Shown: piece by piece, positions 1,842 through 41,414 of the stretch
Layout of the letters: each line of letters begins with the position of its first letter
Position numbering within the stretch: position 1 is the stretch's first letter
Virus record (IMG/VR): IMGVR_UViG_3300028734_000012
Span: 1-64,000 of that record
DNA from: a virus
Reading direction: 5' to 3' (one strand)
DNA length: 64,000 nt
Made by a program: the position numbers and the translations under genes
The notes under the pieces: generated by a model
Seen by the model: only the letters and a program-made list of their open reading frames with translations
The model's database searches: none
Told to the model about the DNA's origin: nothing

Positions 1842-2102
1842 TTACTCTACTTTTTCTTCTCTGTATGTAATATTAATGCTGTCATCCAAAGTGTGTTTAA
1901 TTACATCAAATGTTATAGATTTGTATCTGTAAACATCCACACTTAATATTGCAAATGTTGCGATAATATTTGATTTGCCGTCACCCTTAAAAAGCTGTCT
2001 CTCGCTATTTTCTTCAACTTGTTCACCGTATTTTTTTAGGAAAGTTTCCGCTTTAAGGAACTCCCCTTTATTGATTAAACTGGTGATTTTTTTTACAGTC
2101 AT
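1842..2102 (-). CDS. hypothetical protein
   Basis: ORF, RBS. Confidence 0.7.
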   Translation of the reverse strand: MTVKKITSLINKGEFLKAETFLKKYGEQVEENSERQLFKGDGKSNIIATFAILSVDVYRYKSITFDVIKHTLDDSINITYREEKVE

Positions 2103-2674
2103 CTGATTACCTCATTATCTCTCATTAATTTATAGAAAGGAATTGAAATTAAATCCTTCCTTAAAACATTATAATACTTATGTATTTTTGGGTCAGAAAA
2201 TTTGCACCAATTTGATTTTTCATCATTGACCAAGAATTTTCTCATCATAGTTGCAGAAATAGGGATACGACCTCTGTTGACAATAAACTCGCCAATATCC
2301 ATGATATCCTCTTTAGCGAACCACTTACTACGGCTTTCATCGTTGCCGTAAATCATGATATCCAAGGGAACATCTGTAATCCTCTTGACACTTGATAGAA
2401 CATATTTACCCCAATCTGGTGTAATGTCATCCTCTGTAGTTAGGTCATTTAAAGGCTTGACTGTTACACAACTATATGGGTAAATTTCTTTAATCATATC
2501 TACCCTTGTGCATACATCATATGGGTTACGCTCTGTGCCGTATTCTTGTGCCGAACCAACCAATATTAAGACGTTCTCACAAAGCTTTAATCCTGTCTCA
2601 ACTAAGTCTTCATGACCAATATGAACATGTTGAAACCTACCGCAAATTAGACCTAAATTATATGGTTTACTCAT
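2099..2674 (-). CDS. nadM: NMN/NaMN adenylyltransferase (NadM-like, HIGH nucleotidyltransferase)
   Basis: GRFQHVHIGH, GSAQ, RNP and ISAT motifs. Confidence 0.85.
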   Translation of the reverse strand: MSKPYNLGLICGRFQHVHIGHEDLVETGLKLCENVLILVGSAQEYGTERNPYDVCTRVDMIKEIYPYSCVTVKPLNDLTTEDDITPDWGKYVLSSVKRITDVPLDIMIYGNDESRSKWFAKEDIMDIGEFIVNRGRIPISATMMRKFLVNDEKSNWCKFSDPKIHKYYNVLRKDLISIPFYKLMRDNEVIR

Positions 2675-7265: not shown

Positions 7266-7272
7266 ATAAAGA

Positions 7273-16152: not shown

Positions 16153-17190
16153 TTATTTTTTGCGTATTTTTCTGTCTTTTACTGTTTCCCAATATGCTTT
16201 AATTTCATCATGTTCGAGTAAGTCTTCCCATTTTAGAGATTGTAATTCAATTTCCGTAACATCTCTTACTTTTCTAACCATTGTGTCAACTAATTGTAGG
16301 GAAGAAATGAACGTATTGTATTTTAAAGTTCCTCTGAATATACGAAATTCAATTGTGTCACAGTTAGTTAGATTGATGGCATAGTATCTGTTTAAATCGT
16401 TACACTTTGATTTACGTACAATTTCATCTGGCTTTTCATCATATTTCTTTGCCCAACTATTGATATTACTAAGACTTCTACGTGAGAATTTACTTAGTTC
16501 TAACCAAAATTTTTCAACAAGATATAAAAGTCTTGTCACGTATAAATCTTCGTCTTTGCTAAAAAAACTTCTGTTGAAATGGATATGTAAACCACAGCTT
16601 GAAGTTTGATGGGAACGGTATCCCTTTTTGATTGCTAATTTAAACATTTCTTTATAGTTGCTTTTTAGTGATGTATGGTATTCAAGGGTAGCAGGTTGCG
16701 TGATATTTTCAAAGCCGTCATCTAAAGAACCGTCATTTTCAAAATGGATAAATTCGTTAGGCATAATAGCTTCAATTGATTCTGCCGTTTCCTCATTTTC
16801 ATCACTATCAAATCCACACCCTTTGTCGTCAGAATCTATTTCCAATTCAATCCCGAGATAAGGAACTTGACGCATTTCATCGTCACCAAAGAATTTAATT
16901 CTGCCATCAAATTCATGGTAATCTTTTATTTTACGGCTGTCTGTTCTATCGTTAAAACAATCACAGCAGTAATAATTATCAGATTCAATATATGCATCGT
17001 CTTTGTAAATCAATATTCCACAGTCTTCGCATTCTACGATATACTTATCTTTACAAGTATCACAAATGTGATGCCCGTTGTCGTCAATAAAATCCTCGTC
17101 TTCATCAGAAATAGTATATCCACAAATATTACAAGTCATTAGTTTCTCCTTTTTTAAATCTTTATTTTTAAAATTAAATATGTTAAGCAA
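16153..17190 (-). CDS. putative amidoligase subtype A with Zn-ribbons
   Basis: LGIELEID, DGSL, FENITQP, CGLHIH, TIEFRIFRGT; true start may be MTCNIC. Confidence 0.85.
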   Translation of the reverse strand: MLNIFNFKNKDLKKEKLMTCNICGYTISDEDEDFIDDNGHHICDTCKDKYIVECEDCGILIYKDDAYIESDNYYCCDCFNDRTDSRKIKDYHEFDGRIKFFGDDEMRQVPYLGIELEIDSDDKGCGFDSDENEETAESIEAIMPNEFIHFENDGSLDDGFENITQPATLEYHTSLKSNYKEMFKLAIKKGYRSHQTSSCGLHIHFNRSFFSKDEDLYVTRLLYLVEKFWLELSKFSRRSLSNINSWAKKYDEKPDEIVRKSKCNDLNRYYAINLTNCDTIEFRIFRGTLKYNTFISSLQLVDTMVRKVRDVTEIELQSLKWEDLLEHDEIKAYWETVKDRKIRKK

Positions 17191-24408: not shown

Positions 24409-24554
24409 ATATACTTATTTTTATATTATAATATGAATTGGAAATAGAATTTTCATATTGCAATATAAAAGTTAGATTTTATTTCTCAATTTACTTGACA
24501 AATAAAGAATAAAAGACTATAATATATATAGAATAATAAAGGGGATGTATAGTT

Positions 24555-24872: not shown

Positions 24873-24950
24873 TTTCTAAATTTACTTGACAAATTAAAAA
24901 ATTGAGTATATAATTAATACATAAAATAAAAAAATAATAGGAGATATATT

Positions 24951-25493
24951 ATGAAAAAATTATTGGTTGTTGTAGATATGCAAAATGACTTTATTGATGG
25001 TTCTCTTGGTACAAAAGAAGCGCAAGCAATCGTACCAAATGTTATTGCAAAGATTAAGGAAACGGAATTGAATGGCGGCTTTGTTGTGTTTACTAGAGAT
25101 ACTCATCTTTCTGATTATCTTAAAAAACAAGAAGGTCAAGTTCTACCAGTCAAGCATTGCATTAAAGATTCACAAGGATGGTTAATACCTACTAATATCA
25201 TTGAATCAAGTCATTCTTTCGGGGAATCAAAAAAACACGTTATTTTTAATAAAGGAACTTTTGGGAGTTCTAAATTAATAGCGTATGTTAATCAAAGCAA
25301 ATATGGAGAAGTTGAACTTGTTGGATTATGTACTGATATTTGCGTTATTTCTAATGCTATTGGTATTAAAATTCTTTCGCCAGAAGTCATAATTACAGTT
25401 GATTCTTCATGTTGCGCAGGAGTTACACCAGAAAGCCATAAGAATGCTTTGAATGTTATGAAGATGTGCCAAATTAATATCATCAATGAATAA
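24951..25493 (+). CDS. pncA: nicotinamidase (isochorismatase family)
   Basis: VVDMQNDF, D-T-H, HC, K, GLCTDICV. Confidence 0.88.
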   Translation: MKKLLVVVDMQNDFIDGSLGTKEAQAIVPNVIAKIKETELNGGFVVFTRDTHLSDYLKKQEGQVLPVKHCIKDSQGWLIPTNIIESSHSFGESKKHVIFNKGTFGSSKLIAYVNQSKYGEVELVGLCTDICVISNAIGIKILSPEVIITVDSSCCAGVTPESHKNALNVMKMCQINIINE

Positions 25494-25507
25494 GTAAGGC
25501 GGTAAAC

Positions 25508-25744
25508 ATGAGTAGAAATACTGGTAGCAAGATTTTCTTTAAGCCAATTAATTGTTTGATATCTAAAGCCCCTTTAGAAGATATTGGTAGACGTCAATAT
25601 GATGCATGTTTAGATATGCGTTTAACTGTAGCGGGTGAAGATGCAAATGACCCATACACAAAGATACGGTATCAAGAAGCTGATGGTTATGAGGACACGC
25701 TTTGGATTAAAAACGAAGCACTTGATTACAATCGAATAATTTAA
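25508..25744 (+). CDS. LKPxxCL-family small protein
   Basis: IFFKPINCL...ALDYNR. Confidence 0.65.
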   Translation: MSRNTGSKIFFKPINCLISKAPLEDIGRRQYDACLDMRLTVAGEDANDPYTKIRYQEADGYEDTLWIKNEALDYNRII

Positions 25745-25820
25745 TTCCATTATTTACTTGACAAATACCATAAAATATGGTAAGATATAATCATAAAGAA
25801 AAGAAATTGAGGTAAAAAAA

Positions 25821-26642
25821 ATGAGCGTATTACTTAATGGCAAAATGATTGGCAACAGATGTTATCCGAACAATGAGCGCATTTTTGATAAAAAGGACAC
25901 AGGAATCGGCAAGTTTAACATTATCACTTTGAATTACGAAACAGACATTGATATTACTATCTTGTCTATTATCGTAAGATTTCTAAGGGATGAATATCCG
26001 CAATCATTTAATCGCCTTATCATGAGGTATATCCCATATGAGCGTATGGACAGAAAAATCGGTGGGTACATTTTTAGCTTAAAGTATTTCTGCCAAATGA
26101 TTAACGAACTTCATTTCGATGAAGTCTATGTGATGAATGCTCATTCGAGTGTTTCCACGGCATTGCTTGACAGAGTTAAAGAAATGGATATCAGCCAACA
26201 CATCCATGATGTGATTACGCAACAGTCAATTGATTGTCTTTTCTATCCAGACAACGGCGCGCAGAAGAGATATTCTGAATTGTTTACAGAAAACAAAGGT
26301 AGCTACATCAATCGAAAAATCAGTGAACTTCCGCACTTCTTTGGTGATAAGAAAAGAGATTTAGACACAGGACATATCTTGTATTATAATCTAATTGAAG
26401 CACCAGACTTGACGGATAAGAACGTTCTTATCGTTGATGACCTTTGTAGTATGGGTTATACCTTTCTTATGGCGGCAAAGTCGCTCAAAGAAGCAGGAGC
26501 GAAGACAGTATCGCTCTATGTAAGCCATTGTGAAAATTCAGTCTTCAAGGGCGAATTGCTTACCACTGACTATGTTAACAGAATCTTTACTACATACAGC
26601 CTTTCCCCTTCTTCACATGAAAAAATTACCCTTATGGATTGA
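25821..26642 (+). CDS. prs: ribose-phosphate pyrophosphokinase-like (Prs/Adps-like)
   Basis: YPNNE, YIPYERMDR, HS, PDNGA, K.R, LIVDDLCSMGYTF. Confidence 0.88.
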   Translation: MSVLLNGKMIGNRCYPNNERIFDKKDTGIGKFNIITLNYETDIDITILSIIVRFLRDEYPQSFNRLIMRYIPYERMDRKIGGYIFSLKYFCQMINELHFDEVYVMNAHSSVSTALLDRVKEMDISQHIHDVITQQSIDCLFYPDNGAQKRYSELFTENKGSYINRKISELPHFFGDKKRDLDTGHILYYNLIEAPDLTDKNVLIVDDLCSMGYTFLMAAKSLKEAGAKTVSLYVSHCENSVFKGELLTTDYVNRIFTTYSLSPSSHEKITLMD

Positions 26643-26652
26643 GGTAATTTGA

Positions 26653-26838
26653 ATGGAAACTTTTATGATATACAAGAACGATATTAAGATAGGCATAATG
26701 AGAAGCCCGTTACCGAGAGTTGGAGATTATCTATGTTATGACGATAAAGCGTTTATTGTTAAACAAGTAATCCTTTCTTATGGTGATAAAAAAGTTGATG
26801 GCATTCGTTATCTAAATGCCATTATGGTAAATGTGTAA
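26653..26838 (+). CDS. hypothetical protein
   Basis: ORF, RBS. Confidence 0.65.
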   Translation: METFMIYKNDIKIGIMRSPLPRVGDYLCYDDKAFIVKQVILSYGDKKVDGIRYLNAIMVNV

Positions 26839-26977
26839 AATTAGTAACCGCCTTAATTGGCGGCTATTTTTTTTATGTGTGCTAATTTTCATATTATAAT
26901 ATTAAATAATAATTTATTTTTTAATTTACTTGACAAATATAAATAAACATGTTATTATATAAATAAGAAATGAGGTA

Positions 26978-27283
26978 ATGAATATGGAAGAGATTACTAT
27001 AGAAAAAAGAAAATTAGATTGTTTGCTTAGAAGAGCAAATATTTCTAATAAAGATTTAGATTTTTATTTTAAAGAAATAGACCGTAAGATGAAAGATATA
27101 AAAATAGGAGATAAAGTTTACGAAATTGGAACTTACGGAGATGTTTTTGAAAAAATAGTCATTAGAATTGTTGATAAAGACAACGGCACGATAGAAACAC
27201 AAGAAAGAAGTATTAATAAAACGGAAATAAGGAATATACTTTCGTATTGTGATTGGACTACTGTAAAGAAAATAACATATTAA
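26978..27283 (+). CDS. hypothetical protein
   Basis: ORF, RBS, promoter. Confidence 0.65.
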   Translation: MNMEEITIEKRKLDCLLRRANISNKDLDFYFKEIDRKMKDIKIGDKVYEIGTYGDVFEKIVIRIVDKDNGTIETQERSINKTEIRNILSYCDWTTVKKITY

Positions 27284-27310
27284 TATAAATAAGAAATGGG
27301 GTAGTCATAA

Positions 27311-27844
27311 ATGGAAAAAGTTATATTTAATACTATGTACGTTGATGTAATGATTAAGGTTAATGGTAAAAACGATTGTTTAAGAATCTTTGATAATAGA
27401 CTTGGCAAAAATCCCACCTACATTGAGATACAAGATTTTTTAAGCAACCGAGATGTTAATGAAAATATTACCATTGATTTAACATCAACATTTTGGCATA
27501 CTTTTCATATATATACAAAAGAAACAGATTTTTTCACAGTTGATAATGTGAGTGTACTTCCAAAAAAATTTATGATAGCATTAGAGTTAAAGAAAATTAC
27601 CGAGAAACTATATCAAATAAAATCAGATGGTTGTTTCTCAAAATTTGTATTAGTAGAAAAAAATAATGACGGTGAATTTATTGATACAGAAATTGATTAT
27701 GATTATTGTAAAGTCGTTAATGATACTATGATTTGCATATTTGATGATTCAGAATATGGATACCAATGTGTTTCTGCTATTATCGATTTGTTAACAGAAG
27801 AATGCGTTATGGCTAAACAATTAAAAGAAGAAAATAAAAAATAA
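27311..27844 (+). CDS. hypothetical protein
   Basis: ORF, RBS. Confidence 0.7.
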   Translation: MEKVIFNTMYVDVMIKVNGKNDCLRIFDNRLGKNPTYIEIQDFLSNRDVNENITIDLTSTFWHTFHIYTKETDFFTVDNVSVLPKKFMIALELKKITEKLYQIKSDGCFSKFVLVEKNNDGEFIDTEIDYDYCKVVNDTMICIFDDSEYGYQCVSAIIDLLTEECVMAKQLKEENKK

Positions 27845-27931
27845 TAATTAAATTTCCAATATTTACTTGACAAATGCTATAAAATATGGTATTATATAAA
27901 CATAGAAAAGAAAGAACGAGGTACACAAAAG

Positions 27932-29641
27932 ATGAGTTTTATTCCAACACCGACATTATGCACAGATTTTTACAAAGAGTGCCATTTTGACCAGTACAAT
28001 CCTAAGATGACAAGATTGGTATCTTACTACACACCGCGTATGAGCAGAACTTCCGATAAAACTGTTGTCAATTTCGGTTTACAGTATTATATCAAAAGCT
28101 ATTTGATTGACGATTTTTCCGAACATTTCTTCAAACTTTCAAAAGCAAAAGCCGTTGCACCGTATGCAAGAATGATGGCTTTTACAATGGGCAAACGCTT
28201 CGCTGATACCACACGTTGGGAACAGCTATGGGAATACGGGCGGCTACCTTTAGAGTTCGCAGAAGTGCCAGAGGGTACGAAAGTTCCAATGGGTTGCCCG
28301 TCAATCAGAATTTCTAATATTGTGCCAATGGATGCGTTGTTCTTTATGTGGTTGGTTAACTTTATTGAAACTGGTATGAGTACTACTTTGTGGCATATGG
28401 GTGCTTCTGCTAATGTTGGTAATACCTATTACGGTATTGTCAAAGAGCATTTTGCAAAATCCGTTGAAGATAGCGTCCCAATTCATTCTGCTATTGGTGA
28501 TTTTTCTATGCGTGGACAGCAAGGTATTGAAAGTTCCGCAAAATCAAGCGCGGCATTTTTACTTTCTTCTACAAAAACTGCAACAATTCCCGCAATTGAA
28601 TTTTTGGAGAAATATTACAATTGCAACATCGAAACAGAACTTGTCGCAACTGGACTTGCAAGCACAGAGCATTCCGTTGAAACAAGTAATGCCGCTATTG
28701 ATGGCGATGAAAAGACCCACGTAATTAAGTTGTTATCAGAAACATATCCAGAGGATAATTTCGTAAGGGTATGGGATAGCTACGATTATTTTGGCAGATT
28801 TGATATCTTGGAAGACCCGCAAGTTAAAGCGTTAATTTTGGCGCATAAGGGCTTTATGGGTATCCGTGGAGATAGTGGAGACCCTGTTGAAATTGTTTGC
28901 GGTAAGCCTTGCATGATTTTCAAAGATGAAGAAGAATTTTATAATTATGTCAATCATATGTGGGATAATTACTATGCTGATGATTCTGCGCTTATCGTTC
29001 ACAATGGAGATACGGTCAGAATTGCGACAGAATACAAGACGGTAATTCCTAATAAAGGCAAGCTATGTCTTCATGACACGACTGTTACCAGAGAATTTAT
29101 GGGTACTATTGAATCTGTTGACAAGATTTTTGGACATACCATTAATTCAAAGGGCTACAAAGTTCTCAATGAACATGTTAAAGTCGTGTATGGCGACGGC
29201 ATCACACCAGACCGCGCAAGAACAATTTATTCTATTGCAGAAGCAAAAGGTTATGCGGCAAACAATGTTATCTTGGGCATGGGTTCTTATTCTTTAGAAT
29301 CCGCAGAAGGTAACACACCGCTAACAAGAGACACGTATTCTGTTGCTATTAAATCTACCTATGGTGAGTATACAGATGAAAACGGCAAAACTCAACCATT
29401 GATGATTTTCAAAGACCCTATTTCGGACACAGGGCATTTCAAGAAATCTCAAAAGGGTTGTATCGTTGTGAAAAAAGCAGAAGACGGTACTCTTTCCTTC
29501 AAAGACCAATACAATTGGGAAGAATCAGAAGCGTTAAAATCTGAAAATCTTTTGCAAACAGTTTTCTATGATGGTGTCTTGGTAAAAGAACAGTCATTGA
29601 AAGAAATCAGAAATGTACTGCATGAGGGATTTTATGAATGA
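27932..29641 (+). CDS. nadV: NAMPT/NadV-fold phosphoribosyltransferase (Namat-like), probably nicotinate-utilising
   Basis: TDFYK, DFSMRG, TEHS, DSYD, RGDSGDP, YGDGI, KKSQKG. Confidence 0.9.
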   Translation: MSFIPTPTLCTDFYKECHFDQYNPKMTRLVSYYTPRMSRTSDKTVVNFGLQYYIKSYLIDDFSEHFFKLSKAKAVAPYARMMAFTMGKRFADTTRWEQLWEYGRLPLEFAEVPEGTKVPMGCPSIRISNIVPMDALFFMWLVNFIETGMSTTLWHMGASANVGNTYYGIVKEHFAKSVEDSVPIHSAIGDFSMRGQQGIESSAKSSAAFLLSSTKTATIPAIEFLEKYYNCNIETELVATGLASTEHSVETSNAAIDGDEKTHVIKLLSETYPEDNFVRVWDSYDYFGRFDILEDPQVKALILAHKGFMGIRGDSGDPVEIVCGKPCMIFKDEEEFYNYVNHMWDNYYADDSALIVHNGDTVRIATEYKTVIPNKGKLCLHDTTVTREFMGTIESVDKIFGHTINSKGYKVLNEHVKVVYGDGITPDRARTIYSIAEAKGYAANNVILGMGSYSLESAEGNTPLTRDTYSVAIKSTYGEYTDENGKTQPLMIFKDPISDTGHFKKSQKGCIVVKKAEDGTLSFKDQYNWEESEALKSENLLQTVFYDGVLVKEQSLKEIRNVLHEGFYE

Positions 29642-29981
29642 ATTTGGGTATGAAATAGTCCCTGTTAAAAGTAAAAAGCCGTATTTCATAGTTTATATAA
29701 ATGCTGATTCTAACGACGGGGATTATATTTCAAGAGAAACAAGATATACCGTTAAAGATTTTAATAAGCGTGGTATTAAGGCAGTAAAGATTATTAAGAA
29801 AAAACTATCTGATAACCATGCGCTTGAAAATATGGAAGACATTTTGACAGAAGAAGAATCGGAATTTTTGGAAGATGCAATCGAATTTCCTTATTCTGAT
29901 TGGGGAATTTGCCATTCTATTGAAGACATTGAAGTGTATTATTTCGATGAAAATAACAAAAAATGTAATGTGAAATTCTAA
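29634..29981 (+). CDS. hypothetical acidic protein
   Basis: ORF; start at MNEFG. Confidence 0.65.
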   Translation: MNEFGYEIVPVKSKKPYFIVYINADSNDGDYISRETRYTVKDFNKRGIKAVKIIKKKLSDNHALENMEDILTEEESEFLEDAIEFPYSDWGICHSIEDIEVYYFDENNKKCNVKF

Positions 29982-30007
29982 TAAAAAAAATATAAGGGGA
30001 ACAAAAA

Positions 30008-30751
30008 ATGAGAAAATTTAACGCTACAAAAACTACGCAGGATTTAATCGTATGGATTAAGAATTTCTTTGAGGAAAACGCAAAGACAAACTCAAAAGCA
30101 ATCGTTGCCATTAGTGGTGGCAAAGACAGTTCGGTAGTTGCGGCATTGTGTGTTGCCGCCTTGGGTGTCGAAAATGTATTCGGAGTTCTTCTTCCAAACG
30201 GTGTCCAAACAGACATTGACTACTCAAAGCAGTTGGTTGACTTCTTGGGTATTGAAAATGTCACAGTCAATATCAAAGATACCGTTGATGCACTTACGCT
30301 TGCTATTGTTGAACGTGGCGGCATTGTAGAAACGGCACAGATGAAGACAAATCTTCCTGCCAGAATCAGAATGACAACACTATATGCAATTGCGGCAAGT
30401 ATCGGTGGCAGAGTTGCCAATACTTGTAATCTATCAGAAGATTATGTGGGTTACGCTACGAAGTTTGGTGATGCGGCAGGGGACTTTTCCCCATTGTCAA
30501 ACCTTACAGTGCAAGAGGTAAAAGCGGTTGGCAGAGAGTTAAAACTGCCAGAGACCTTGATTGAAAAAGTCCCTACAGACGGCTTGTGTGGCAAAACTGA
30601 TGAAGACAATCTTGGTTTCACGTATGCTACACTTGATACATATATCAGAACTGGTGTATGTAAAGATGCGGCAGTAAAAGCAAAAATTGATTCTATGCAC
30701 AATAACAACTTACATAAGTTACTTCCAATGCCATCATTCATGCCTATTTAA
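30008..30751 (+). CDS. nadE: NH3-dependent NAD+ synthetase
   Basis: ISGGKDS, ARIRMTTLY, NLSE, GYATKFGD, KVPTDGL, DEDNLG, HK. Confidence 0.93.
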   Translation: MRKFNATKTTQDLIVWIKNFFEENAKTNSKAIVAISGGKDSSVVAALCVAALGVENVFGVLLPNGVQTDIDYSKQLVDFLGIENVTVNIKDTVDALTLAIVERGGIVETAQMKTNLPARIRMTTLYAIAASIGGRVANTCNLSEDYVGYATKFGDAAGDFSPLSNLTVQEVKAVGRELKLPETLIEKVPTDGLCGKTDEDNLGFTYATLDTYIRTGVCKDAAVKAKIDSMHNNNLHKLLPMPSFMPI

Positions 30752-30920
30752 ATAAGCAAAATTTAGGGGTAGGCAATAGCCTATCCTATAATTTTGTAGA
30801 GATATATTTCATATTGTAATATTAATTAAAGTCATAATTATAAACATAAAATCATATAATGAATAAGAAACAGAATTAAGGCAACAATATTTATATCAAA
30901 ATTAAAAAGGAGTTTTTCAA

Positions 30921-32870: not shown

Positions 32871-33146
32871 ATGGCTGAACAAAAAAAATATTACGGAGCA
32901 GTACTGGAAACTGGTAAAATATTTGGTGCGCTGATTGATGCTTACAAGGGCTGTAAAAAGCAAGGAATTTATGAAGCAGACGGCAACAAGATGAACGTTG
33001 TTGATATCTTCACGGGCAAGCTAAAGAGCGCAACAATGGTTGATGGGGTTGTCACGGAATTTAAAATCCTCAACCACAATCTCACCGCAGAAATGAAAAT
33101 CACGAATGGTGAACTGACAGTTGTTTCCATAAGAGCAGTAGCGTAA
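32871..33146 (+). CDS. hypothetical protein
   Basis: ORF, GAGGT RBS. Confidence 0.7.
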   Translation: MAEQKKYYGAVLETGKIFGALIDAYKGCKKQGIYEADGNKMNVVDIFTGKLKSATMVDGVVTEFKILNHNLTAEMKITNGELTVVSIRAVA

Positions 33147-33175
33147 CCTTACAAATATAAATCTTACAGATAAGC

Positions 33176-33291
33176 AAATTAGGGGTGGCGAATAGCCATC
33201 CTTTTTTTGGGTTTCAATTATTTTTGGGTTCATCAAATAGGAATTTTTTTGCATATAGATAGTTCACATTGTAATATGAATCTTGATTCAT
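33176..33291. repeat. inverted duplicate of 1..116
   Basis: Exact reverse complement. Confidence 0.95.
33181..33208 (+). terminator. Rho-independent terminator
   Basis: AGGGGTGGC/GCCATCCT stem plus T run. Confidence 0.85.
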
Positions 33292-33761
33292 CAAATAGGA
33301 AAAAAGTTGCATATACAAGGTTCACATGGGTTGCTATGCAATTGATATTCGCTACGCTCAACTGATATGAGACAAACATTCACTTCATTTCATATTGTAA
33401 TATGAATTAATACGTTTCACATTATAATATAATCTCATATTGGTTGCTTCGCAACTAATACAAAACGCAAAGCGTTTCATATTGTAATATAAGGTTAATA
33501 CGTTCATATTATAATATGAATCTCACTACGTTCGATTTATATTCTATGAGTTTTAATATTTCACATTATAATATGAGGTATATATTTTCATATTATAATA
33601 TGACTTAATATATTTAATTCCAAAAAGAATTTTCCATTTCTCTTGACAAAATTGCTGTGCAATTTTTTGAAGAATATTAAAATAAATATTTTAATATTCT
33701 TGACAAATTGAGAATACTATTATATAATATAGACAGACAAAAAAGAAATGGCGGTAAATTA

Positions 33762-33809
33762 ATGATTGTGATGTTCTTAATACTATTATTTTCACCTAAG
33801 AAAAAATAA
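33762..33809 (+). CDS. 15-aa hydrophobic micropeptide MIVMFLILLFSPKKK
   Basis: Own promoter at 33700, GGCGGT RBS, two paralogs. Confidence 0.65.
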   Translation: MIVMFLILLFSPKKK

Positions 33810-33825
33810 GGAAGAGGTTATTAAA

Positions 33826-34014
33826 ATGAAAAACAAAACTATAGAGCGTGTCTTAATTATACTGATAGCAATTCAAGTTGTGTTAATCATTTTAGGGTTC
33901 GTACTTTACGCAGGGAAACCATTCGATGTATTAAGATATACGGTCATGAATGCATCGTTACTTGTTATGAATGCTTATACGCTACATAACTGTAAGAAAG
34001 AGGAAAGCAAATGA
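33826..34014 (+). CDS. small membrane protein
   Basis: Hydrophobic, RBS. Confidence 0.65.
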   Translation: MKNKTIERVLIILIAIQVVLIILGFVLYAGKPFDVLRYTVMNASLLVMNAYTLHNCKKEESK

Positions 34015-34407
34015 AATACTTAAATGAAAGAATATCCTTGGTTATCCTAATTATCACAGCAATCATATTCCTAAAGAATAGCATAATTACCGCGCCTATA
34101 TTTTTCATTACAATAATACTGATATTCATAGCAGATGAACTTATAGACATAAAATGCGCTATAGATAAGAAAGGGGATAACAAATGATGATACTTGAAGC
34201 GCATTGCCTATTAAAAAATTGGTGGTCGGTCACTAAGAATATGGTTGTAAAAGGGTTTTTAATTTTAGACATTAGTATCGAAAATGAATTTGTTAATTTA
34301 GTATTCGGTAGAATAATGTAATTTCTAAATAAATATTTTAATAGTCTTGACAATTAATAAATAGTGATATATAATAGAGATACAAACAAAAGAAAAGAGG
34401 ACAAAAA

Positions 34408-34752
34408 ATGGAAAAGAGATATATTATGCTTAGTCGTTCTAAAGAGACAATCACTGAAAAGACATTGGCATTTCTGAAAGACGGCTACGAATTAGTAGGG
34501 GTAGATGACCGCGGTGAATCCCTTGAATTTCAAAAAGAACATCCTGTGTGGAAAATCATTAATCCAATATGGGAAATTACCAATCCAAACGGTGCATATA
34601 CCAAAGAGGGCGCTAAAAACATCGAAGGTATATACAATTTCATTGAAGGAACAATTTCAGAAATTGGGGTCAGCGATGCAAAATCACTTTACCGTCATCT
34701 TACTGAAAATCCAACGGAGACATTAGCAATATTAAAATCATTATCTGAATAA
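34408..34752 (+). CDS. hypothetical protein
   Basis: ORF, RBS, promoter. Confidence 0.7.
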   Translation: MEKRYIMLSRSKETITEKTLAFLKDGYELVGVDDRGESLEFQKEHPVWKIINPIWEITNPNGAYTKEGAKNIEGIYNFIEGTISEIGVSDAKSLYRHLTENPTETLAILKSLSE

Positions 34753-34802
34753 ACAAAAGATAAACAAAACATACGACAACAAAATAAAAAGGAGAATTAA
34801 AT

Positions 34803-35120
34803 ATGTTCAAGATTTATTGGATAAATATGTCAAAAGCAACGGGTGACACAAGAATTGGGACAAGACCAGTCGTGTCGGTCGAACAAGTCGGTAAAAAGCT
34901 AACAGTCTATGAGATTACAAGCCGCAACAAGGGAGACAGATATCATGCGCACATGAACAACTACCTCATAAGGGGTTATTGCGATTGCGGAACTGCATAT
35001 AGGGTCGATGAGAAGTACATCAAGAGTTATGTCAGAGATTGCACACTAACAGAATATAAGGCTATTTCAGATACTATAGCGGCACTAAAACCTAGAGATT
35101 CAAATAAACAGGCTGTATAA
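34803..35120 (+). CDS. PemK/MazF-like protein
   Basis: IYW, GTRPVV, V..ITS motifs; 105 aa. Confidence 0.6.
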   Translation: MFKIYWINMSKATGDTRIGTRPVVSVEQVGKKLTVYEITSRNKGDRYHAHMNNYLIRGYCDCGTAYRVDEKYIKSYVRDCTLTEYKAISDTIAALKPRDSNKQAV

Positions 35121-35135
35121 AAAGAAGGAGCAAAA

Positions 35136-35534
35136 ATGCAATTTATCAATAAAACAACGGGCGAAGTTATCTCAACTAATAATAGAAGAATACTGCTTCA
35201 TACGGTTCTTTCATCGGTGTATCTTCAATTCATGTTGGAGAGTGACACCTTGGCAAAAGAGACAGCGAAATATAAAAATGTTCCACTTCTGCCATACATC
35301 ATGACGGATAAGGATAAAGAGAAAATTGCCTTAAATCCAGATACCATTGAGGATATCCCACGGTTTATTGTAAAGGGCTATGATAAGGCGGTCAGCGCCA
35401 GTTACTTTGACCAAAAGGTTTGGGATGAATTTATCACCAGATATAACCAGAATGATGAACGGCTGTGTACATTCATAAACCGCTATCATCCTGTGTTCAA
35501 AGCAACCTTAGATGTTTCATCTATGGCTTCATAA
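35136..35534 (+). CDS. hypothetical protein
   Basis: ORF, AGGAG RBS. Confidence 0.7.
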   Translation: MQFINKTTGEVISTNNRRILLHTVLSSVYLQFMLESDTLAKETAKYKNVPLLPYIMTDKDKEKIALNPDTIEDIPRFIVKGYDKAVSASYFDQKVWDEFITRYNQNDERLCTFINRYHPVFKATLDVSSMAS

Positions 35535-35752
35535 AGCAATCAAGGTGGGTTTATTCACATCTTCCCACATTGATATATTAGGGTGACAGCGTAGCTAACT
35601 GCCATCCTATTTTTTTAAGATATATAAGTTCATATTATAATATGAATCTATTATTTAGAAATTGAGATTCTAAAATAAACTTTAAAATACTATTGACATT
35701 CTTATTTTATGGGGTTATAATGTAATTACAAAAGAAAAGGATGTGTAACAAT

Positions 35753-36266
35753 ATGAATTATTTTACAGACTGCAAATGTATTGAAGAGGTTAAGGAAATT
35801 TACCGCAAGATGGCTTGCTTGCTCCATCCAGACATTAATCACGCGCCAGATGCAACACAGCAAATGCAAGCTTTAAACAGCCAGTATGAGCATATATTCG
35901 CACTTCTAAAGAACACTCATAGGTCAATCAACAACGCAGAGGAAGTCTATACGGCAACAGGAGATAAGGAAACCAAAGAAGTACCAGAAGACTTCATCGG
36001 AATCATTAGCGTAATCATTGGTTTAGTCGGTATCAAAATCGAATTGATGTCGTTGGGTTTGGGTAACAGGTGAAACCAAACAATATAAGGACATTTTTAA
36101 GGGTCACGGCTTCATGTGGAGCAATCCAAAACAAGCATGGTCATGGCATAAAGCAGAGGATGCAACACACAGCAGAAAGCGTATTCCACTTGATAAGATA
36201 AGGGAAATGTACGGGTCACAAGAAATCACCCAAGAACGCAATAACAGGGCGGCTTTAAATAGTTAA
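35753..36266 (+). pseudogene. DnaJ-domain protein with frameshift near 36050
   Basis: HPD motif; shifted frame continues WVWVTGETKQYKD...W...W.W...IREMYGS. Confidence 0.8.
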
Positions 36267-36452
36267 TCATTACGGGGCAGTAGAAATACTGCTCCATTTT
36301 TTTTAGAATATAATCTTCATATTATAATATGAAGCGTTATATAATATAATTCACATTATAATATGATATAATATATTAAATAAAAAATAAACTTCTCTTA
36401 TATCTTGACATTAGAAAAATACCGTGTTATAATATAATTACAAAATAAAGAA

Positions 36453-36797
36453 ATGAGGAAATACAAAATGATTTACGAAAAACTACAGAAGACAACGGTT
36501 GAGGACAAGTTCTTAAAAGCAGAGATATATTATAGTAAGGGTGGATATCATGCCAAACGTGGCTATTATCTAAGGGTTACACCAGTAAAGGTTAAAAAAG
36601 GAAACGGCTATACAAGCGAGGAATCAAGCCTGTTCGGCAATGAAAGTGGAGATGTAATGTTCATCCATGAAGTGGGTCGTCAGTCAGACAAGCAGTTCCA
36701 GATTGCTTGCAGTATCGCAGAGGATAAAGCGAACAACTTAGTCGAGAAGCTAACCGCTAAAGTATCTGCTCAAAGTGGATGGATTCTAAAAGAATAA
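36453..36797 (+). CDS. hypothetical protein
   Basis: ORF; probable start 36468. Confidence 0.7.
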   Translation: MRKYKMIYEKLQKTTVEDKFLKAEIYYSKGGYHAKRGYYLRVTPVKVKKGNGYTSEESSLFGNESGDVMFIHEVGRQSDKQFQIACSIAEDKANNLVEKLTAKVSAQSGWILKE

Positions 36798-36973
36798 ATT
36801 GTAAAAGGGTGTTCGGTAACGGATGCCCTTTATTTTATATGGAGTTATTTCATATTATAATATGAATGTTTAATTTAGAAATTCAATTCTTAAAAATAAA
36901 GTTTAATTAACTATTGACATTAATTATTTATAGTGTTATAATATAATTACAAAAGAAAGAGAGGTATTAATTA

Positions 36974-37171
36974 ATGAGTTGTCCAAATTGCGGTCACGAA
37001 GAATATGTATGCATCGAAGTTTCAGATTCTTCTGGTTCTTGCGCATTAGTGGTTGGTTGTACTGGTTCGGTAAGACCAAGGGTTTGTTTAAATTGTGGGG
37101 TTGTTTATTTGTCAAAAGAGCGCTTAGAAGAGATTAAGGATTGCGAAAATAGATTAAAAAGAGCGAAGTAA
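36974..37171 (+). CDS. small Zn-ribbon protein
   Basis: CPNC and CLNC. Confidence 0.7.
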   Translation: MSCPNCGHEEYVCIEVSDSSGSCALVVGCTGSVRPRVCLNCGVVYLSKERLEEIKDCENRLKRAK

Positions 37172-37509
37172 AATTCGCTCTTTTTATTTTAGAATGTGAT
37201 TTCATATTATAATATAAAACTATTAATTATAAATTCAATTTCTAAAAATAAAGTTTAATAAAGTATTGACATTGATTATTTACCATGTTATAATGTAATC
37301 ACAAAGAAAAGAGGTAAGCAATATGAAAGAAAATCCGTGGTACAATGGTTCAAATGGTCAAAGAGAATGGATAGACAAATGGAATCAAGAGTATGCAGTT
37401 TGCATAAAATGTCCTAAATATCCAAACTGTAATGCCATTGACCGTACAGATGAAAATACATGTGGCTTGCTAACACTACCAATACTAAATAAATAAGAGG
37501 TAAAATAAA

Positions 37510-37788
37510 ATGACAGTAGAACAAATTAAAGAGATGAAACCGTTTGAGGTATGCATGGAGTTAGAGTGTGGAAACTTACTAGACCAGATTGACACTGTTG
37601 ACAAGGCACAAGCAATCTTGGACAAGGTAAGTTGTCTACGTCGTTCACAGGGGTTTTATACACGCTTATGTGAAAGCTTGGAAGATTTTATTGCAAGCTT
37701 TGATGATGACAGCGATGATATGCCATATGATGACGGTGAAGAATGCGACGGAGAATGTGACGGTGGCTGTAGCGAGGGTGAAGATTAA
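37510..37788 (+). CDS. acidic hypothetical protein
   Basis: Asp/Glu-rich tail. Confidence 0.7.
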   Translation: MTVEQIKEMKPFEVCMELECGNLLDQIDTVDKAQAILDKVSCLRRSQGFYTRLCESLEDFIASFDDDSDDMPYDDGEECDGECDGGCSEGED

Positions 37789-37790
37789 TT

Positions 37791-38063
37791 ATGGATAACG
37801 ACAGCTATATTCTGAACAATGGACTTGGGGAAATCCTTCATATACAATTGTATAATGATGGATATTATTTAGCTAGTGTACCATATGTATGCAAAAAAGA
37901 CGGCAAAATTTATATTCAAGGATTTTGGAGTGAAGATGAAGCAACTATTGATAAATACGAAATTTTAAACGGCAAAATTAGGATATTGCATTATATCCAA
38001 TATTATCGCGGTATTGAAATAAAGAATTGTGAATGTGATGTTACCGTAGATTGGATTATATAG
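37791..38063 (+). CDS. hypothetical protein
   Basis: ORF. Confidence 0.6.
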   Translation: MDNDSYILNNGLGEILHIQLYNDGYYLASVPYVCKKDGKIYIQGFWSEDEATIDKYEILNGKIRILHYIQYYRGIEIKNCECDVTVDWII

Positions 38064-38264
38064 TTTTAAAAAGGATAGTCGGCTCTATCCTTTTTTTTAT
38101 AGACAATTATTTCATATTATAATATGAATAGCTTATAATTCTTGTCATATTATAATATGACTTAACATATAAACCTAAAAATAAAGATTAAAATTAGCTT
38201 GACATTATATATAATAGATGTTATAATATATTTAGAAACTAAAAGAAAAGGACGTGTAAACAAT

Positions 38265-38558
38265 ATGAATGAAAGAGCAAAGATTATCTTAGAGCAACTT
38301 GGTGGGAATCATTTCATGGTGATGACAGGCGCAAAGCTTATCACATATGATGATAATTCTATTTCCTTATCACTACCACGTAATATCTCAAAAGCGAACA
38401 AATTTTCGGTGACACTTGATGGTGACGATACTTACACAATGAAGTTCTATTCCACTACACGTAAAGAGCCGATGATATGCGCTCAAAGTGGATTGTACTT
38501 CAATATGTTACAGCCAGAGTTTACCAGAGTGACAGGGATGGACACTAAATTATTCTAA
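38265..38558 (+). CDS. conserved-type phage/mobile-element protein
   Basis: ILEQLGG..F..MTGAK and DTYTM motifs. Confidence 0.7.
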   Translation: MNERAKIILEQLGGNHFMVMTGAKLITYDDNSISLSLPRNISKANKFSVTLDGDDTYTMKFYSTTRKEPMICAQSGLYFNMLQPEFTRVTGMDTKLF

Positions 38559-38967
38559 AGGAGTAAACAACATGTTTGATTCAAGAGAGTTACACAATAT
38601 TGCCGTTGGCATTGCAGAGATGGAGAGCGCACACAGCGAGGACACCGACAAAGACATAGCAATCGTTAATGCTATTGATGGCGCAGTAGATGCACTAAGG
38701 AGACTTTCAAATCTATTGCTTACAGAAGAAGCTTAATAAATGGGGTGGAGAAATCCATCCTATTTTTTTTATCCAATTCATTTTATATTATAATATGAAA
38801 AATAACTATACTTCTCTTCATATGAGTTGCAAAGCAACTGGATATAAAACGCTCCGCGTTTCATATTACAATATGATTAAAATATTGAATTAATTATTTA
38901 GTATATTTACTTGACATTCGCATATAAATATAGTATAATAATTAAACAAAGAAAAGGGGATTAACGA

Positions 38968-39015
38968 ATGTTTATGATGTTTCTTTATTTACTATTTTTT
39001 GGAAAAAAGAAATGA
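38968..39015 (+). CDS. 15-aa hydrophobic micropeptide MFMMFLYLLFFGKKK
   Basis: Own promoter at 38912, AGGGGA RBS. Confidence 0.65.
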   Translation: MFMMFLYLLFFGKKK

Positions 39016-39100
39016 AAACGCTTGACAAATGACGAAAACAATGGTATACTAGTAACAGAGATTAAGAGAAGAACGACAAAAGAAAGAGAGGTATTTCAAC

Positions 39101-39345
39101 ATGAAACTTATTTACTTCGGTCGATGTAGTTGCTCAACTAAAAAAAATATTATTAAATAATTAACGACAGCCGCGGCAGTTTGGCGCACAGCCAAAGAAG
39201 GAGATATGACGATGTTTCATAGTGGATTTGTTTAGCTAGACATTATAAATTAGAACGTATTAGATGAGAACAGCGCGGCTACAGCCGCACGAACCAAACG
39301 TTATTAGGGGGATTTGTGATGAGATTTACAACTGGATTTACTTAG
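39101..39345 (+). other. micro-ORF array: MKLIYFGRCSCSTKKNIIK (39101-39160), MFHSGFV (39212-39235), MRFTTGFT (39319-39345)
   Basis: Each behind a strong RBS; repeated GGATTT...TAGCTA and CGCGGC. Confidence 0.5.
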
Positions 39346-39588
39346 CTAAACTATGATAATTAAAAATTAGATTGTATATATAAATAAATAAATAATACGC
39401 GGCGACGGGGTTATTTTATATCCCGCCGCCGCCTTTTTATTTAGGAATGAATTTCATATTATAATATGAATATAAGAAGCGAATTGTTATATTATAATAT
39501 GAATTAGAATATTTATTTTTAAATAAGATTGACAATTAAAAAAACGTATGTTATAATATAATTACAAAAGAAAAGAGGGTATATAATT

Positions 39589-39777
39589 ATGAAATTTATT
39601 GTTGATGAATTACCGAACGGTTGTTCTGAATGCCCCATAAGTAAAAAAGAATACCATGGAAAATTTGGTACTTTTTATAGTTGCCCATTAACTGGTGAAT
39701 CAACTATTGGTGGCTGTAGTTGGATGCAAGGGCAATTAAAAATATGTAAAAGTTGCCCATTAGCTATACTAAAATAA
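39589..39777 (+). CDS. small Cys-rich protein
   Basis: P..C.ECP...CPL motifs. Confidence 0.7.
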   Translation: MKFIVDELPNGCSECPISKKEYHGKFGTFYSCPLTGESTIGGCSWMQGQLKICKSCPLAILK

Positions 39778-40422
39778 AAGAAAAGAGAACCTAATTATGA
39801 AAGATATGATTAAAAGACTTGTAGTATTCACAATCGTTATTCTGGTTGTTATAGCTTGCACTTGGAGACTAACCATGTTATCATTAGGAATAGTAGTCAA
39901 TGACGACACTTGCTACATTACAAGTTACGGGCAAGTAGATGCATATGATTACACACCAAATTTTTAAAGGTGGGTACATATAATGAAACGGAAGTTTATA
40001 TTCTGGTTACTGGTTGATGTTTTCACAATCGGTTTGTTTATCTGGTTTGTTTGGTCTTGCTTGGATGTAAACGCTCATAATAACCTTGGTGATACAAGTA
40101 CCATCAGTACATACAATCTATTCTACATGGCAGAGAGGGCAAGAGATAGCATAATGAGTTGACTTAGTAGGCGGCAGAAATGCCGCCTATTTTTTACCTA
40201 TAGTTGTTTCATATTACAATATGAATCGTTTTATATTATAATATGAGTTTCACTTCGTTCAACTGATATTTTATGAATCTGCTGTAAAAATCTGTTTTCA
40301 TATTCTAATATGAGTTGATTATATAAAAATACAATTTCTAAAATAAAGTTTTAATATCTATTGACAATGATTATTTTTCATGTTATTATATATATAGAAA
40401 AGAAAAGGAAGTGCAATAATAA

Positions 40423-40716
40423 ATGAGTAAAAGTATATTAATCATTGGGGAGTTCAAGACTAGGAGAAAAGATGTTGCCGTTGGTATTCATATTCCAACT
40501 GATAGGCTGATAACGGAGTTAGACATTGAGGAGATACAAACTAAATTCGTATCGACATTCAATCCTATAAAGGATAAAATCAAGAGATATATTGTTGATG
40601 TTGTACACTGTACGAATACAGAAGAAGAAAAAGACTTGGCTATATCATTCAACAGTATATCTTATAATCAAATGGTTCTACATCTGGAACAGTACGCAAG
40701 AATTGCTAACTTATAA
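40423..40716 (+). CDS. hypothetical protein
   Basis: ORF, RBS, promoter. Confidence 0.7.
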   Translation: MSKSILIIGEFKTRRKDVAVGIHIPTDRLITELDIEEIQTKFVSTFNPIKDKIKRYIVDVVHCTNTEEEKDLAISFNSISYNQMVLHLEQYARIANL

Positions 40717-40735
40717 AATAAAGGAGAAAAATATT

Positions 40736-40891
40736 ATGGTAAAAGTTTGTGTTAATGTAATCGGCGCTGATAATCTGACAATGGGTAAGAGGTACGAAAT
40801 AAAAAAAGCAACGCACTCGGATTATGTCAAGGTCAAGAACGATAATGGAAAAGATAAGTGCTATCATAAAATGAGATTTGCGGCTGAATAA
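40736..40891 (+). CDS. small SH3-like protein
   Basis: LTMGKRYEI...VKNDNG...Y...RF; AGGAG RBS. Confidence 0.65.
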   Translation: MVKVCVNVIGADNLTMGKRYEIKKATHSDYVKVKNDNGKDKCYHKMRFAAE

Positions 40892-41183
40892 GCCGCATTT
40901 TTCTTTATATAAACGTTTCATATTACAATATGAATACTTATAATTCTTATCATATTCTAATATGAATTGATAAAATAAAGTTTTAATTAGTGTTGACAAT
41001 TGTTATTTTCCATGTTATAATAAATATAGAAATTAAAGAGAGAAGGATTTAAAAATGACAGTTTACAGAAAAGGTTTGAGGAAAAATTTCATCTATTTGT
41101 ACGAGATGACAATGAAAGAATATCTGGTCAACCGCTACATCTATGGAAGTAAAATATTTAGGAAATAAAAGGAGTGCAACATT

Positions 41184-41414
41184 ATGTATAAAAAATCAAT
41201 AGCAATATTAGAATTGACAAATTTTAGCGGCATTAAGATTCTAGGCATTGAATACGGAATCAATGATAAGGTAAAATTTTGTTATACTGATGATGAAAAG
41301 GGCGATGGTAGGACTATAACGGCAAAAATCAGATATGATGATGAGGGCAAAAGTTATTTCATATCCTATGGTCATCGTTATGATATTGATGAATTTATAA
41401 GAACAAATTCATAA
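41184..41414 (+). CDS. hypothetical protein
   Basis: ORF, RBS. Confidence 0.7.
   Translation: MYKKSIAILELTNFSGIKILGIEYGINDKVKFCYTDDEKGDGRTITAKIRYDDEGKSYFISYGHRYDIDEFIRTNS

Follow-up and report, generated by a model that had tools for sequence, protein, structure and literature searches.

A four-gene phage cassette as a candidate nicotinate-type variant of the NARP1 pathway of NAD+ reconstitution

The closest described system is NARP1, which consists of Adps and Namat and is known from the phages SPbetaL1, Bas63 and ICP1, and also from Paenibacillus foliorum (bioRxiv 10.1101/2024.02.11.579819; PMC12774641; PMC13586617). In the crystal structure of Namat, Asp215 and Ala242 are among the nicotinamide contacts; the D215A mutation lowers NAD+ formation 8-fold, and the double mutation of R40 and F392 in the SPbetaL1 enzyme abolishes the use of ADPR-PP (PMC12774641). 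In human NAPRT, the residue equivalent to Asp219 of NAMPT is a serine, which is taken to direct the specificity for nicotinate (PMC4442680). Another phage route, NARP3, is formed by PnuC and NadR (PMC13464706), and the label of a "third route", given by the first-pass annotation to the locus described here, is therefore already taken. In Clostridium acetobutylicum, Preiss-Handler (pyridine nucleotide cycle) salvage is encoded by a pncA-pncB-nadD-nadE operon regulated by NrtR, an ADPR-responsive repressor (PMC2330246). The genes of the gut phage phAss-1 (OQ749652.1) that resemble those of the present locus have been annotated singly, with nadE labelled as hypothetical, and the pathway is not discussed (PMC10607447).

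The window, which is the whole stretch of 64,000 nucleotides analysed here (positions 1 to 64,000 of IMG/VR record IMGVR_UViG_3300028734_000012), belongs to a phage genome of 176 kb in which a cassette of four enzymes is encoded: a nicotinamidase, a Prs-like protein, a Namat-like transferase and an NAD synthetase. The features are as follows.

24886..24914, + strand: sigma-70-type promoter-like site, TTGACA-17-TATAAT, 12/12 (consensus scan only)
24951..25493, + strand: pncA, PncA-type nicotinamidase, 180 aa (PF00857, 4e-23)
25821..26642, + strand: Adps-like PRPS (prs) paralogue, 273 aa (phrog_619, 2e-60)
27932..29641, + strand: Namat-like transferase of the NAMPT fold, 569 aa (phrog_448, 1e-130)
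30008..30751, + strand: nadE, NH3-dependent NAD+ synthetase, single domain, 247 aa (PF02540, 3.5e-51)
30766..30787, + strand: terminator-like hairpin, 15 bases 3' of the nadE stop codon
25508-25744, 26653-26838, 26978-27283, 27311-27844 and 29613-29981, + strand: five small ORFs among the cassette genes
2099..2674, - strand: NadM/NMNAT-like adenylyltransferase, 191 aa (PF01467, 3.6e-11)

The clustering of pncA, the Prs-like gene, the NAMPT-fold gene and nadE, seen in the first-pass annotation, is borne out, the four being intact ORFs on one strand at these coordinates, and so is the NadM-like gene near 2099, which is an intact ORF as well. The promoter-like site lies 37 bases 5' of pncA, and another perfect TTGACA-17-TATAAT site is found at 24495-24523, in a consensus scan whose overall site count is no higher than that of shuffled sequences. 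The five small ORFs have no Pfam matches, and the only match among them is that of 29613-29981 to phrog_29711, a family of unassigned function. A conserved fifth cassette gene was considered and dropped, as these ORFs have no relatives in the other 249 loci, and they are probably unrelated passengers. Recoding of TAG was also considered, as a suppressor tRNA is present, yet reading TAG as Gln gives no longer ORFs (32-50 kb), and with table 11 every cassette gene reads through intact. Nudix and Macro genes were not found in the phage genome; a NADAR gene is present, 150 kb from the cassette.

It is probable, on the evidence of homology and gene content, that the cassette rebuilds NAD+ from ADPR and nicotinamide by way of nicotinate, ADPR-PP and NaAD, and that it is thus a nicotinate-type (deamidated) variant of NARP1. 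In this scheme, NADase defences of the TIR, SIR2 and DSR types would split NAD+ into ADP-ribose and nicotinamide, after which PncA would convert nicotinamide into nicotinate and NH3, and the Adps-like enzyme would convert ADP-ribose and ATP into ADPR-PP and AMP. The transferase, which has Ala in place of the amide-binding Asp and in which Ser244 and Lys215 would be available for binding the carboxylate, would join nicotinate to ADPR-PP, directly generating NaAD and PPi, and NadE would form NAD+ from NaAD, ATP and NH3. We infer the substrates of the Adps-like enzyme and of the transferase and, by analogy with NARP1, the counter-defence role. NADases may leave the intermediates of this route uncleaved, as suggested in the first-pass annotation.

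The first and last enzymes of this scheme are recognized by family matches and sequence motifs. When aligned with 1im5 and 6a8l, PncA has the nicotinamidase triad (D9/K101/C131) and keeps the metal ligands (D50/H52/H69) on the isochorismatase fold, and its closest solved structure is the P. horikoshii nicotinamidase 1im5. It scores 82.7 bits against PF00857 (cut-off 27) and only 33 bits against the PncA equivalog NF008623 (cut-off 174). NadE scores 173.8 bits against TIGR00552 (cut-off 63.65) and is a PP-loop ATP pyrophosphatase domain with the P-loop SGGKDS and without a glutaminase domain. Its closest structures are 2e18 and 3fiu, and the top 16 of its 19 solved relatives are short single-domain proteins named NH3-dependent NAD+ synthetase. 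Such genes are rare in phages, with NadE being found in 43 of 50,697 phage records.

The Prs-like gene is, by its sequence, a member of the Adps family. The protein shares 38% of its residues with SPbetaL1 Adps, an assayed enzyme (E 4e-51) that is its top match among the 50,697 phage records, whereas its match to PRPS structures reaches only 3e-9. Its PP loop is DDLCSMGYTF, as in Adps, not DDMIDTAGT; it is also short, has a deletion at the N-terminus and carries a PHS-type His motif, all as in Adps. A phylogenetic comparison with Adps and Namat, suggested earlier for this locus, places the transferase clade as sister to the Namats and the Prs-like protein in the Adps clade; in the latter case, this is a quick tree (disregarding the housekeeping row L254, a wrongly picked ORF) in which the protein groups with SPbetaL1 Adps in a 98* clade and the housekeeping Prs proteins fall outside. 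Its closest relative, with 50% identity, is an Adps paired with an Asp-type Namat. A separate housekeeping Prs is kept in five cultured cassette-bearing bacteria.

The closest solved structure of the transferase is SPbetaL1 Namat (9w5x, 3.8e-91), to which its homology is unambiguous, and its nearest relatives are Namats, not Nampts. It has neither the Asp219 of canonical Nampt nor a score above the NadV cut-off (365.5 bits against the equivalog NF006629, cut-off 405). The core is kept (D12, Y14, F191, R194, H247, R312, D314, G421-D422 and T465-R466-D467), matching the catalytic-core set of Namat (Asp13', Tyr15', Phe189, Arg192, the catalytic His, Arg306 and Asp308), and there is an insertion of ~60 aa at residues 324-390. 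The clamp residues R39 and Y453 are present; R39, in the motif TPRMSR, corresponds to the stacking Arg of the clamp loop (Arg40 of SPbetaL1 Namat) and is invariant in alignment A1. Among the 164 changed-pocket loci described below, the Arg of this pair is found in 146 and the aromatic residue in 160. The clamp helix, GSYSLESAEGNTPLTRD, does not match the Namat consensus G-S-X-phi-X-phi-X-phi-T-R-D, in which X is aromatic at positions 3 and 7: the aromatic residue at position 3 and the TRD are kept, the motif is lengthened from 11 residues to 17, and the position-7 aromatic residue, the second to stack on the adenine, is gone. The preference for ADPR-PP may have changed with this remodelling. 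In the basal members of the clade, from Clostridium species, the Namat clamp motif is intact and the Ala, pncA and nadE are already there.

The base pocket of the transferase is formed by K215, A217 and S244. The segment FLLSSTKTAT comprises residues 208-217, and HMMER pairs LLSSTKTAT with LLSFTGTDT of Namat, so that Ala217 takes the place of Namat Asp215 (Asp219 of human NAMPT), as claimed in the first-pass annotation for the nicotinamide-selecting Asp. This is not a chance change, as the residue is Ala in all of the 120 nearest homologues. Related loci were taken from IMG/VR, GTDB genomes and assemblies (n=253), of which 89 are of the classical Asp type and 164 of the Ala/Ser type. All 89 Asp-type loci have Asp at position 217, Ala at 244 and Gly at 215. 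Loci of the changed type have Ala (147) or Ser (17) at 217, Ser at 244 (164/164), and Asn (125), Lys (21) or Gly (15) at 215. The three positions thus change jointly over the 253 loci, from Gly-x-Asp plus Ala242 to Asn/Lys-x-Ala/Ser plus Ser.

The pocket change tracks the presence of pncA and nadE across the 249 loci that are scorable for context (161 Ala/Ser-type and 88 Asp-type). One or both of these genes lie within 6 kb of the transferase gene in 157 of the 161, versus none of the 88, 75 of which have Adps alone, and pncA homologues (36-60% identity) adjoin the transferase gene in 150 of the 164 Ala/Ser-pocket loci. A Fisher test over loci gives p ~3e-63, which is not taken as a probability since the tree has only ~1-3 underlying events, and the 157 loci are not independent cases. 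The cassette genes occur in three kinds of order, and nadE, with or without pncA, is also found in the outlying lineages P0137 and P0171 and in phAss-1. In Clostridia and Methanomassiliicoccales, the cassette is an NrtR-linked operon, and the phage cassette looks acquired from such cellular operons. Its relatives are picked up by protein and profile comparisons alone: none is found at the DNA level by megablast against the 50,697 phage records, and none by a single-protein scan of IMG/VR. The earlier proposal, that nicotinate made by PncA is used by an Asp-less transferase whose product is amidated by NadE, is supported by this tracking and by the conservation of the cassette, both among phages and in the cellular operons linked to NrtR.

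The same proposal had left the donor as ADPR-PP or PRPP. ADPR-PP, with NaAD formed directly, is favoured because the Prs-like gene is an Adps and because cassette phages normally have no adenylyltransferase. The main rival, which we regard as rather unlikely, is a Preiss-Handler-like salvage pathway with a NAPRT of the NAMPT fold: PncA would make nicotinate, the Prs-like enzyme PRPP and the transferase NaMN, which host NadD or the phage NMNAT-like enzyme would convert into NaAD, with NadE acting last and ADP-ribose not being recycled. The remodelled clamp motif is in its favour, as is the PRPP activity retained by Namat (PMC12774641). NadD is present in each of the five cultured bacteria with the cassette, and three of them lack a second gene of the NAPRTase family (PF04095), which fits the transferase being their ordinary nicotinate phosphoribosyltransferase and counts against the ADPR-PP reading, as does the NMNAT-like gene of this phage. 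This rival does not account well for a Prs-like gene that groups with the Adps, has their specific loops and, in the window, is closest to an Adps paired with a classical Namat, when the cassette-bearing cells already own a housekeeping Prs, nor for the basal Clostridium members, which combine the intact clamp motif with Ala, pncA and nadE. The NMNAT-like gene itself lies 23 kb from the cassette on the opposite strand; its protein has the NadM/NMNAT-type motifs GRFQHVHIGH and ISATMMR and scores above the PF01467 cut-off, and every NMNAT-specific NCBIfam model, including the NadM type, stays under its own cut-off. Of 36 phage records with the cassette, 3 contain a relative of this gene by protein search; by family search, a PF01467 adenylyltransferase is found in none of the 20 cassette phages whose records have a completeness of 90% or more. 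This distribution rules out NMNAT as a member of the module; the gene, which the first-pass annotation had included in the pathway, is accessory and outside the conserved set.

The absence of an NMNAT from 33 of the 36 cassette phages also argues against a Francisella-type route, in which the transferase would make NaMN, NadE would act as an NMN synthetase (NaMN to NMN) and the NadM-like enzyme of 2099-2674 would convert NMN into NAD+. This route would draw on the NadM-type NMNAT-like gene, as judged from its motifs, and on the second-best solved relative of NadE, the similarly short 3fiu of Francisella tularensis (9e-31), which we take to be an NMN synthetase. The best matches of NadE are ordinary NAD synthetase models, although its substrate preference is not predictable from sequence alone. 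We consider this route very improbable. It is also quite improbable that the transferase still uses nicotinamide, either as an ordinary NARP1 with pncA and nadE as a co-transferred host salvage module, or in a cassette that is a general metabolic booster and not a counter-defence. The residual activity of Namat D215A after its 8-fold loss (PMC12774641) and the apparent origin from cellular NrtR operons would agree with this, but the joint switch of three pocket positions tracks pncA/nadE, PncA would consume the substrate of a nicotinamide-using transferase, and an amidated route leaves NadE without a substrate.

Returning to the ADPR-PP reading, its extension beyond this phage is, in our estimate, slightly more likely than not: Ala/Ser-pocket Namats would make NaAD in a self-contained four-enzyme loop, free of adenylyltransferase, that restores NAD+ from the two products of NADases, serving counter-defence in phages and NrtR-controlled recycling of ADP-ribose in cells. 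Its scope would include many gut and rumen phages, and the operon in Clostridia, Methanomassiliicoccales, Elusimicrobia and others. The route was found described nowhere in literature searches covering NARP4, the pairing of ADPR-PP and nicotinic acid, and Adps/Namat together with NaAD, PncA or NadE. If true, it would be a new enzyme activity, an NaAD-forming nicotinate ADP-ribosyltransferase, and a further NAD+ reconstitution route in the counter-defence repertoire of phages, by which the phages that infect gut anaerobes would restore NAD+ along the deamidated branch used in their hosts' own metabolism; a widespread operon annotated as "prs, nicotinate phosphoribosyltransferase" would become an ADP-ribose recycling pathway. 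The pocket signature would then be a practical marker separating both types in genome annotation and in anti-defence prediction.

Among the known systems, phAss-1 (PMC10607447) shares the nicotinamidase, the Prs-like gene, an Ala-type transferase and NadE, although its transferase is only 28% identical to that of the window and forms a separate long branch in the tree. The cassette resembles the Preiss-Handler pathway (PncA-PncB-NadD-NadE) in having PncA first and NadE last, deamidated intermediates and NrtR-linked cellular copies, and differs from it in having a transferase of the NadV/Namat fold instead of the PncB fold, no NadD and an Adps paralogue. With NARP2 (Nampt and Nmnat) and NARP3, it shares the phage-encoded restoration of NAD+, and this phage too has an NMNAT-like gene; NARP2, however, needs an Asp-type Nampt making NMN, where the cassette transferase has Ala217, NARP3 imports nicotinamide riboside, and neither uses nicotinate or NadE. 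The likeness to NARP1 is seen in the Adps-family PRPS-like enzyme encoded beside a Namat-clade transferase, in the conserved catalytic core, clamp Arg and first clamp aromatic residue, and in the presumed purpose, by analogy, of rebuilding NAD+ from ADP-ribose and a pyridine base. Unlike NARP1, the cassette has a transferase with Asp215 changed to Ala, Ala242 to Ser and Gly213 to Lys and with a clamp loop of 17 residues (11 in Namat), pncA and nadE are obligatory partners, and the product of the transferase would be NaAD, not NAD+, with one additional ATP, as well as ammonia, being needed.

The full virus record measures 176,332 bp, with a CheckV completeness of 89%, and the window, its first 64 kb, has a G+C content of about 31%. 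The first-pass annotation had recognized candidate genes for the rebuilding of NAD+ and an Ala at the equivalent of Asp219 of human NAMPT, and this observation is right in every point, as the genes are located and HMMER alignment identifies this residue as Ala217:

24951-25493 (+), PncA (isochorismatase fold), 180 aa (PF00857, 4e-23)
25821-26642 (+), Prs-like protein, 273 aa (phrog_619, 2e-60)
27932-29641 (+), NAMPT-fold transferase, 569 aa (phrog_448, 1e-130)
30008-30751 (+), NAD synthetase NadE, 247 aa (PF02540, 3.5e-51; TIGR00552 above cut-off)
2099-2674 (-), cytidylyltransferase-like protein with NadM/NMNAT-type motifs, 191 aa

The cassette (the genes for PncA, Prs-like protein, transferase and NadE) is dispersed across 5.8 kb by five small ORFs, which show no conservation with the cassette at the other loci compared. 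A perfect match to a sigma-70-type promoter ends 37 bases upstream of pncA, a terminator-like hairpin lies 15 bases downstream of nadE, and more good sites resembling promoters lie ahead of the transferase gene, all of these being consensus matches only.

The closest solved structure to the window transferase is 9w5x (3.8e-91), whose numbering agrees with that of the SPbetaL1 Namat (PMC12774641). In the HMMER alignment LLSSTKTAT of the window is paired with LLSFTGTDT of Namat, such that Ala217 occupies the position of Asp215. The catalytic core of Namat/Nampt is fully retained (D12, Y14, F191, R194, H247, R312, D314, GD421-422 and TRD465-467), as are the clamp residues R39 and Y453, the counterparts of Namat R40 and F392, whose double mutation abolishes ADPR-PP-dependent synthesis (PMC12774641). 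The clamp motif has 17 residues (GSYSLESAEGNTPLTRD) versus 11 in the Namat consensus, and there is an insertion of about 60 aa (residues ~324-390), with unrelated insertions at the same site in other long homologues (564-588 aa). Residue 213 is Ser, where Phe stands in 162 of the 164 relatives of the Ala/Ser type and in 86 of the 89 of the Asp type. Three Asp-type Namat homologues (P0156, P0186 and P0226) have insertions of about 300 aa, with Cys at the start and His-Asn at the end, which look intein-like and interrupt precisely the adenine-clamp motif, after G-S-aromatic and before T-Y-Q-x-x-T-R-D.

Ala is found at the Asp position in all 120 nearest homologues, and of 162 sequences, mostly cluster representatives, 97 have Asp here, 44 Ala and 17 Ser. 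An Ala/Ser-type profile retrieved 80 viral and 80 cellular loci and an Asp-type profile 79 more viral loci, and each locus was searched with the window PncA, Adps-like protein and NadE. In 157 of 161 Ala/Ser-type loci pncA and/or nadE is present within 6 kb (in most, both together with an Adps-like gene), and neither is found in any of the 88 Asp-type loci, 75 of which have Adps alone; these locus counts are not independent, because the transferase tree shows two sister clades. Three pocket positions change in concert, without exception in the loci compared.

Pocket residues of the transferases, by window position
217: Asp-type, Asp 89/89; Ala/Ser-type, Ala 147, Ser 17
244: Asp-type, Ala 89/89; Ala/Ser-type, Ser 164/164
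215: Asp-type, Gly 89/89; Ala/Ser-type, Asn 125, Lys 21, Gly 15

Asp215 and Ala242 are both among the nicotinamide contacts listed for the Namat structure (PMC12774641), and human NAPRT has Ser at the Asp219 equivalent, a residue taken to make the enzyme specific for nicotinate (PMC4442680).

In the tree, the Asp types form one clade (support 96) and the others its sister clade (support 96), the basal members of which, from cultured Clostridium species, have Ala, pncA, Adps and nadE and still keep the short Namat clamp motif. Among the outlying sequences, phAss-1 (a gut phage) and P0137 have pncA and nadE, and P0171 has nadE. Given this clade structure and these outlying lineages, we put the evolutionary events behind the association between pocket and genes at about one to three. 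P0259, an Ala-type sequence branching beside the Asp clade (L264:3236-6418, a short bacterial contig), departs from the pattern: upstream of it lie a cytidylyltransferase-like gene and a gene of Prs size (272 aa, without a Pfam hit), and no pncA is in view on this contig, which stops 400 bases downstream.

The Prs-like protein is distinct from the housekeeping PRPP synthases. Among 50,697 phage records it matches best the experimentally characterized SPbetaL1 Adps (38% identity, pairwise E 4e-51), and PRPS structures match no better than 3e-9. In a quick maximum-likelihood tree one well-supported clade (98) holds every cassette Prs-like protein and SPbetaL1 Adps, with the housekeeping Prs of five cassette-bearing bacteria outside it, and the window protein groups (99) with an Adps partnering a classical Asp-type Namat (50% identity). 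The PP loop, which has been put forward as an annotation rule for Adps (PMC13586617), is of the Adps type (DDLCSMGYTF, compare DDLSSFGGTF) versus DDMIDTAGT in Prs, and the PHS-type His motif, the K-K-R-D-x-x-T-G loop, the N-terminal deletion and the short length are further Adps traits.

PncA aligns best with the Pyrococcus horikoshii nicotinamidase and has the triad Asp9/Lys101/Cys131 and the metal site Asp50/His52/His69; such an Asp/His/His site is the mark of nicotinamidases among isochorismatase-like hydrolases. NadE, uncommon in phages (43 of 50,697 records), is a single-domain protein of the ammonia-dependent type with an SGGKDS loop. Two related phage contigs have a gene with a CinA domain (PF02464; L003:5163-5645 and L004:5141-5623) between the transferase gene and nadE; PF02464 is the family to which the NMN deamidase PncC belongs, and this gene would encode a further deamidating enzyme within the same cassette.

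The transferase probably joins nicotinate to ADPR-PP, giving NaAD directly. Its partner enzyme is Adps, the window Adps is evolutionarily interchangeable with that of classical NARP1, the clamp pair is kept, and cassette-bearing cells keep a separate Prs. The cellular cassette operons are also flanked by NrtR, which responds to ADP-ribose (PMC2330246). A reaction of nicotinate with PRPP, giving NaMN, is consistent with the remodelled clamp loop, with the NMNAT-like gene of the window phage, and with cultured cassette-bearing bacteria, where three of five are without another NAPRTase-family gene and all five have NadD. This route is nevertheless unlikely, as a PF01467 adenylyltransferase is found in 0 of 20 cassette phage records at least 90% complete and a relative of the window NMNAT-like gene in just 3 of 36 cassette phage records, which both argue for ADPR-PP. 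That nicotinamide remains the transferase substrate is improbable, and least probable is a Francisella-like NMN-synthetase route, for which the sole hint is the likeness of NadE to 3fiu, a Francisella tularensis structure.

Several other features of this phage were observed. A nine-tRNA array (5727-7346, -) includes a 93-nt tRNA (6145-6237) with a long variable arm and anticodon CTA, which reads TAG, and the related phAss-1 is placed in the 'code 15 clade'; the ORFs at 32-50 kb of the window become no longer when TAG is read as Gln, and recoding, if any, would involve genes beyond the window. About 9 kb (33000-42000) is dense in small genes of unknown function, with no ORF of at least 140 aa on either strand, with table 11 or with TAG as Gln. 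A 427-aa adenylosuccinate-synthetase-family protein (55245-56528, +; PF00709 3.3e-40, phrog_1211) could be PurA or else a PurZ-like enzyme for making modified bases; the genes next to it are without Pfam match. A phrog_16683 paralogue pair (E 8e-64 and 1e-58) with weak amidoligase similarity and a third ORF with a weak Amidoligase_2 match lie at 16153-17190 (-), 10230-11600 (-) and 4397-5467 (-). Outside the window, at ~169.7-174.7 kb of the same genome (L261:3687-8747, -), an RNA-repair-like module encodes a gp30.3/NADAR-related protein, an RNA ligase with OB domain, a 'Swiss Army Knife' HAD domain protein, a NADAR-domain protein and a dual-specificity phosphatase-like protein. Two other loci (L006 and L007) have NADAR genes within the cassette itself.

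The cassette is real and shows good conservation, and it is apparently not described in the searchable literature; its proposed chemistry is unproven. Literature searches for the combination found no description, the original NARP preprint (bioRxiv 10.1101/2024.02.11.579819) is silent on nicotinate, pncA and nadE, and the 2008 NrtR survey has prs-nadV and pncA-pncB-nadD-nadE operons but not the cassette operon (PMC2330246). The published phage phAss-1 has the same gene set, annotated singly and not discussed in its paper (PMC10607447). NARP2 requires an Asp-type Nampt, and NARP3 is already PnuC+NadR (PMC13464706), so that the earlier label of a third route is outdated. The nearest system is NARP1, of which the cassette is not classed as a member because two defining features, both tested, are missing, namely the Asp that binds nicotinamide and the consensus of the clamp motif. 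We call it a nicotinate-type variant, which would be NARP1-like in its working with two extra steps.
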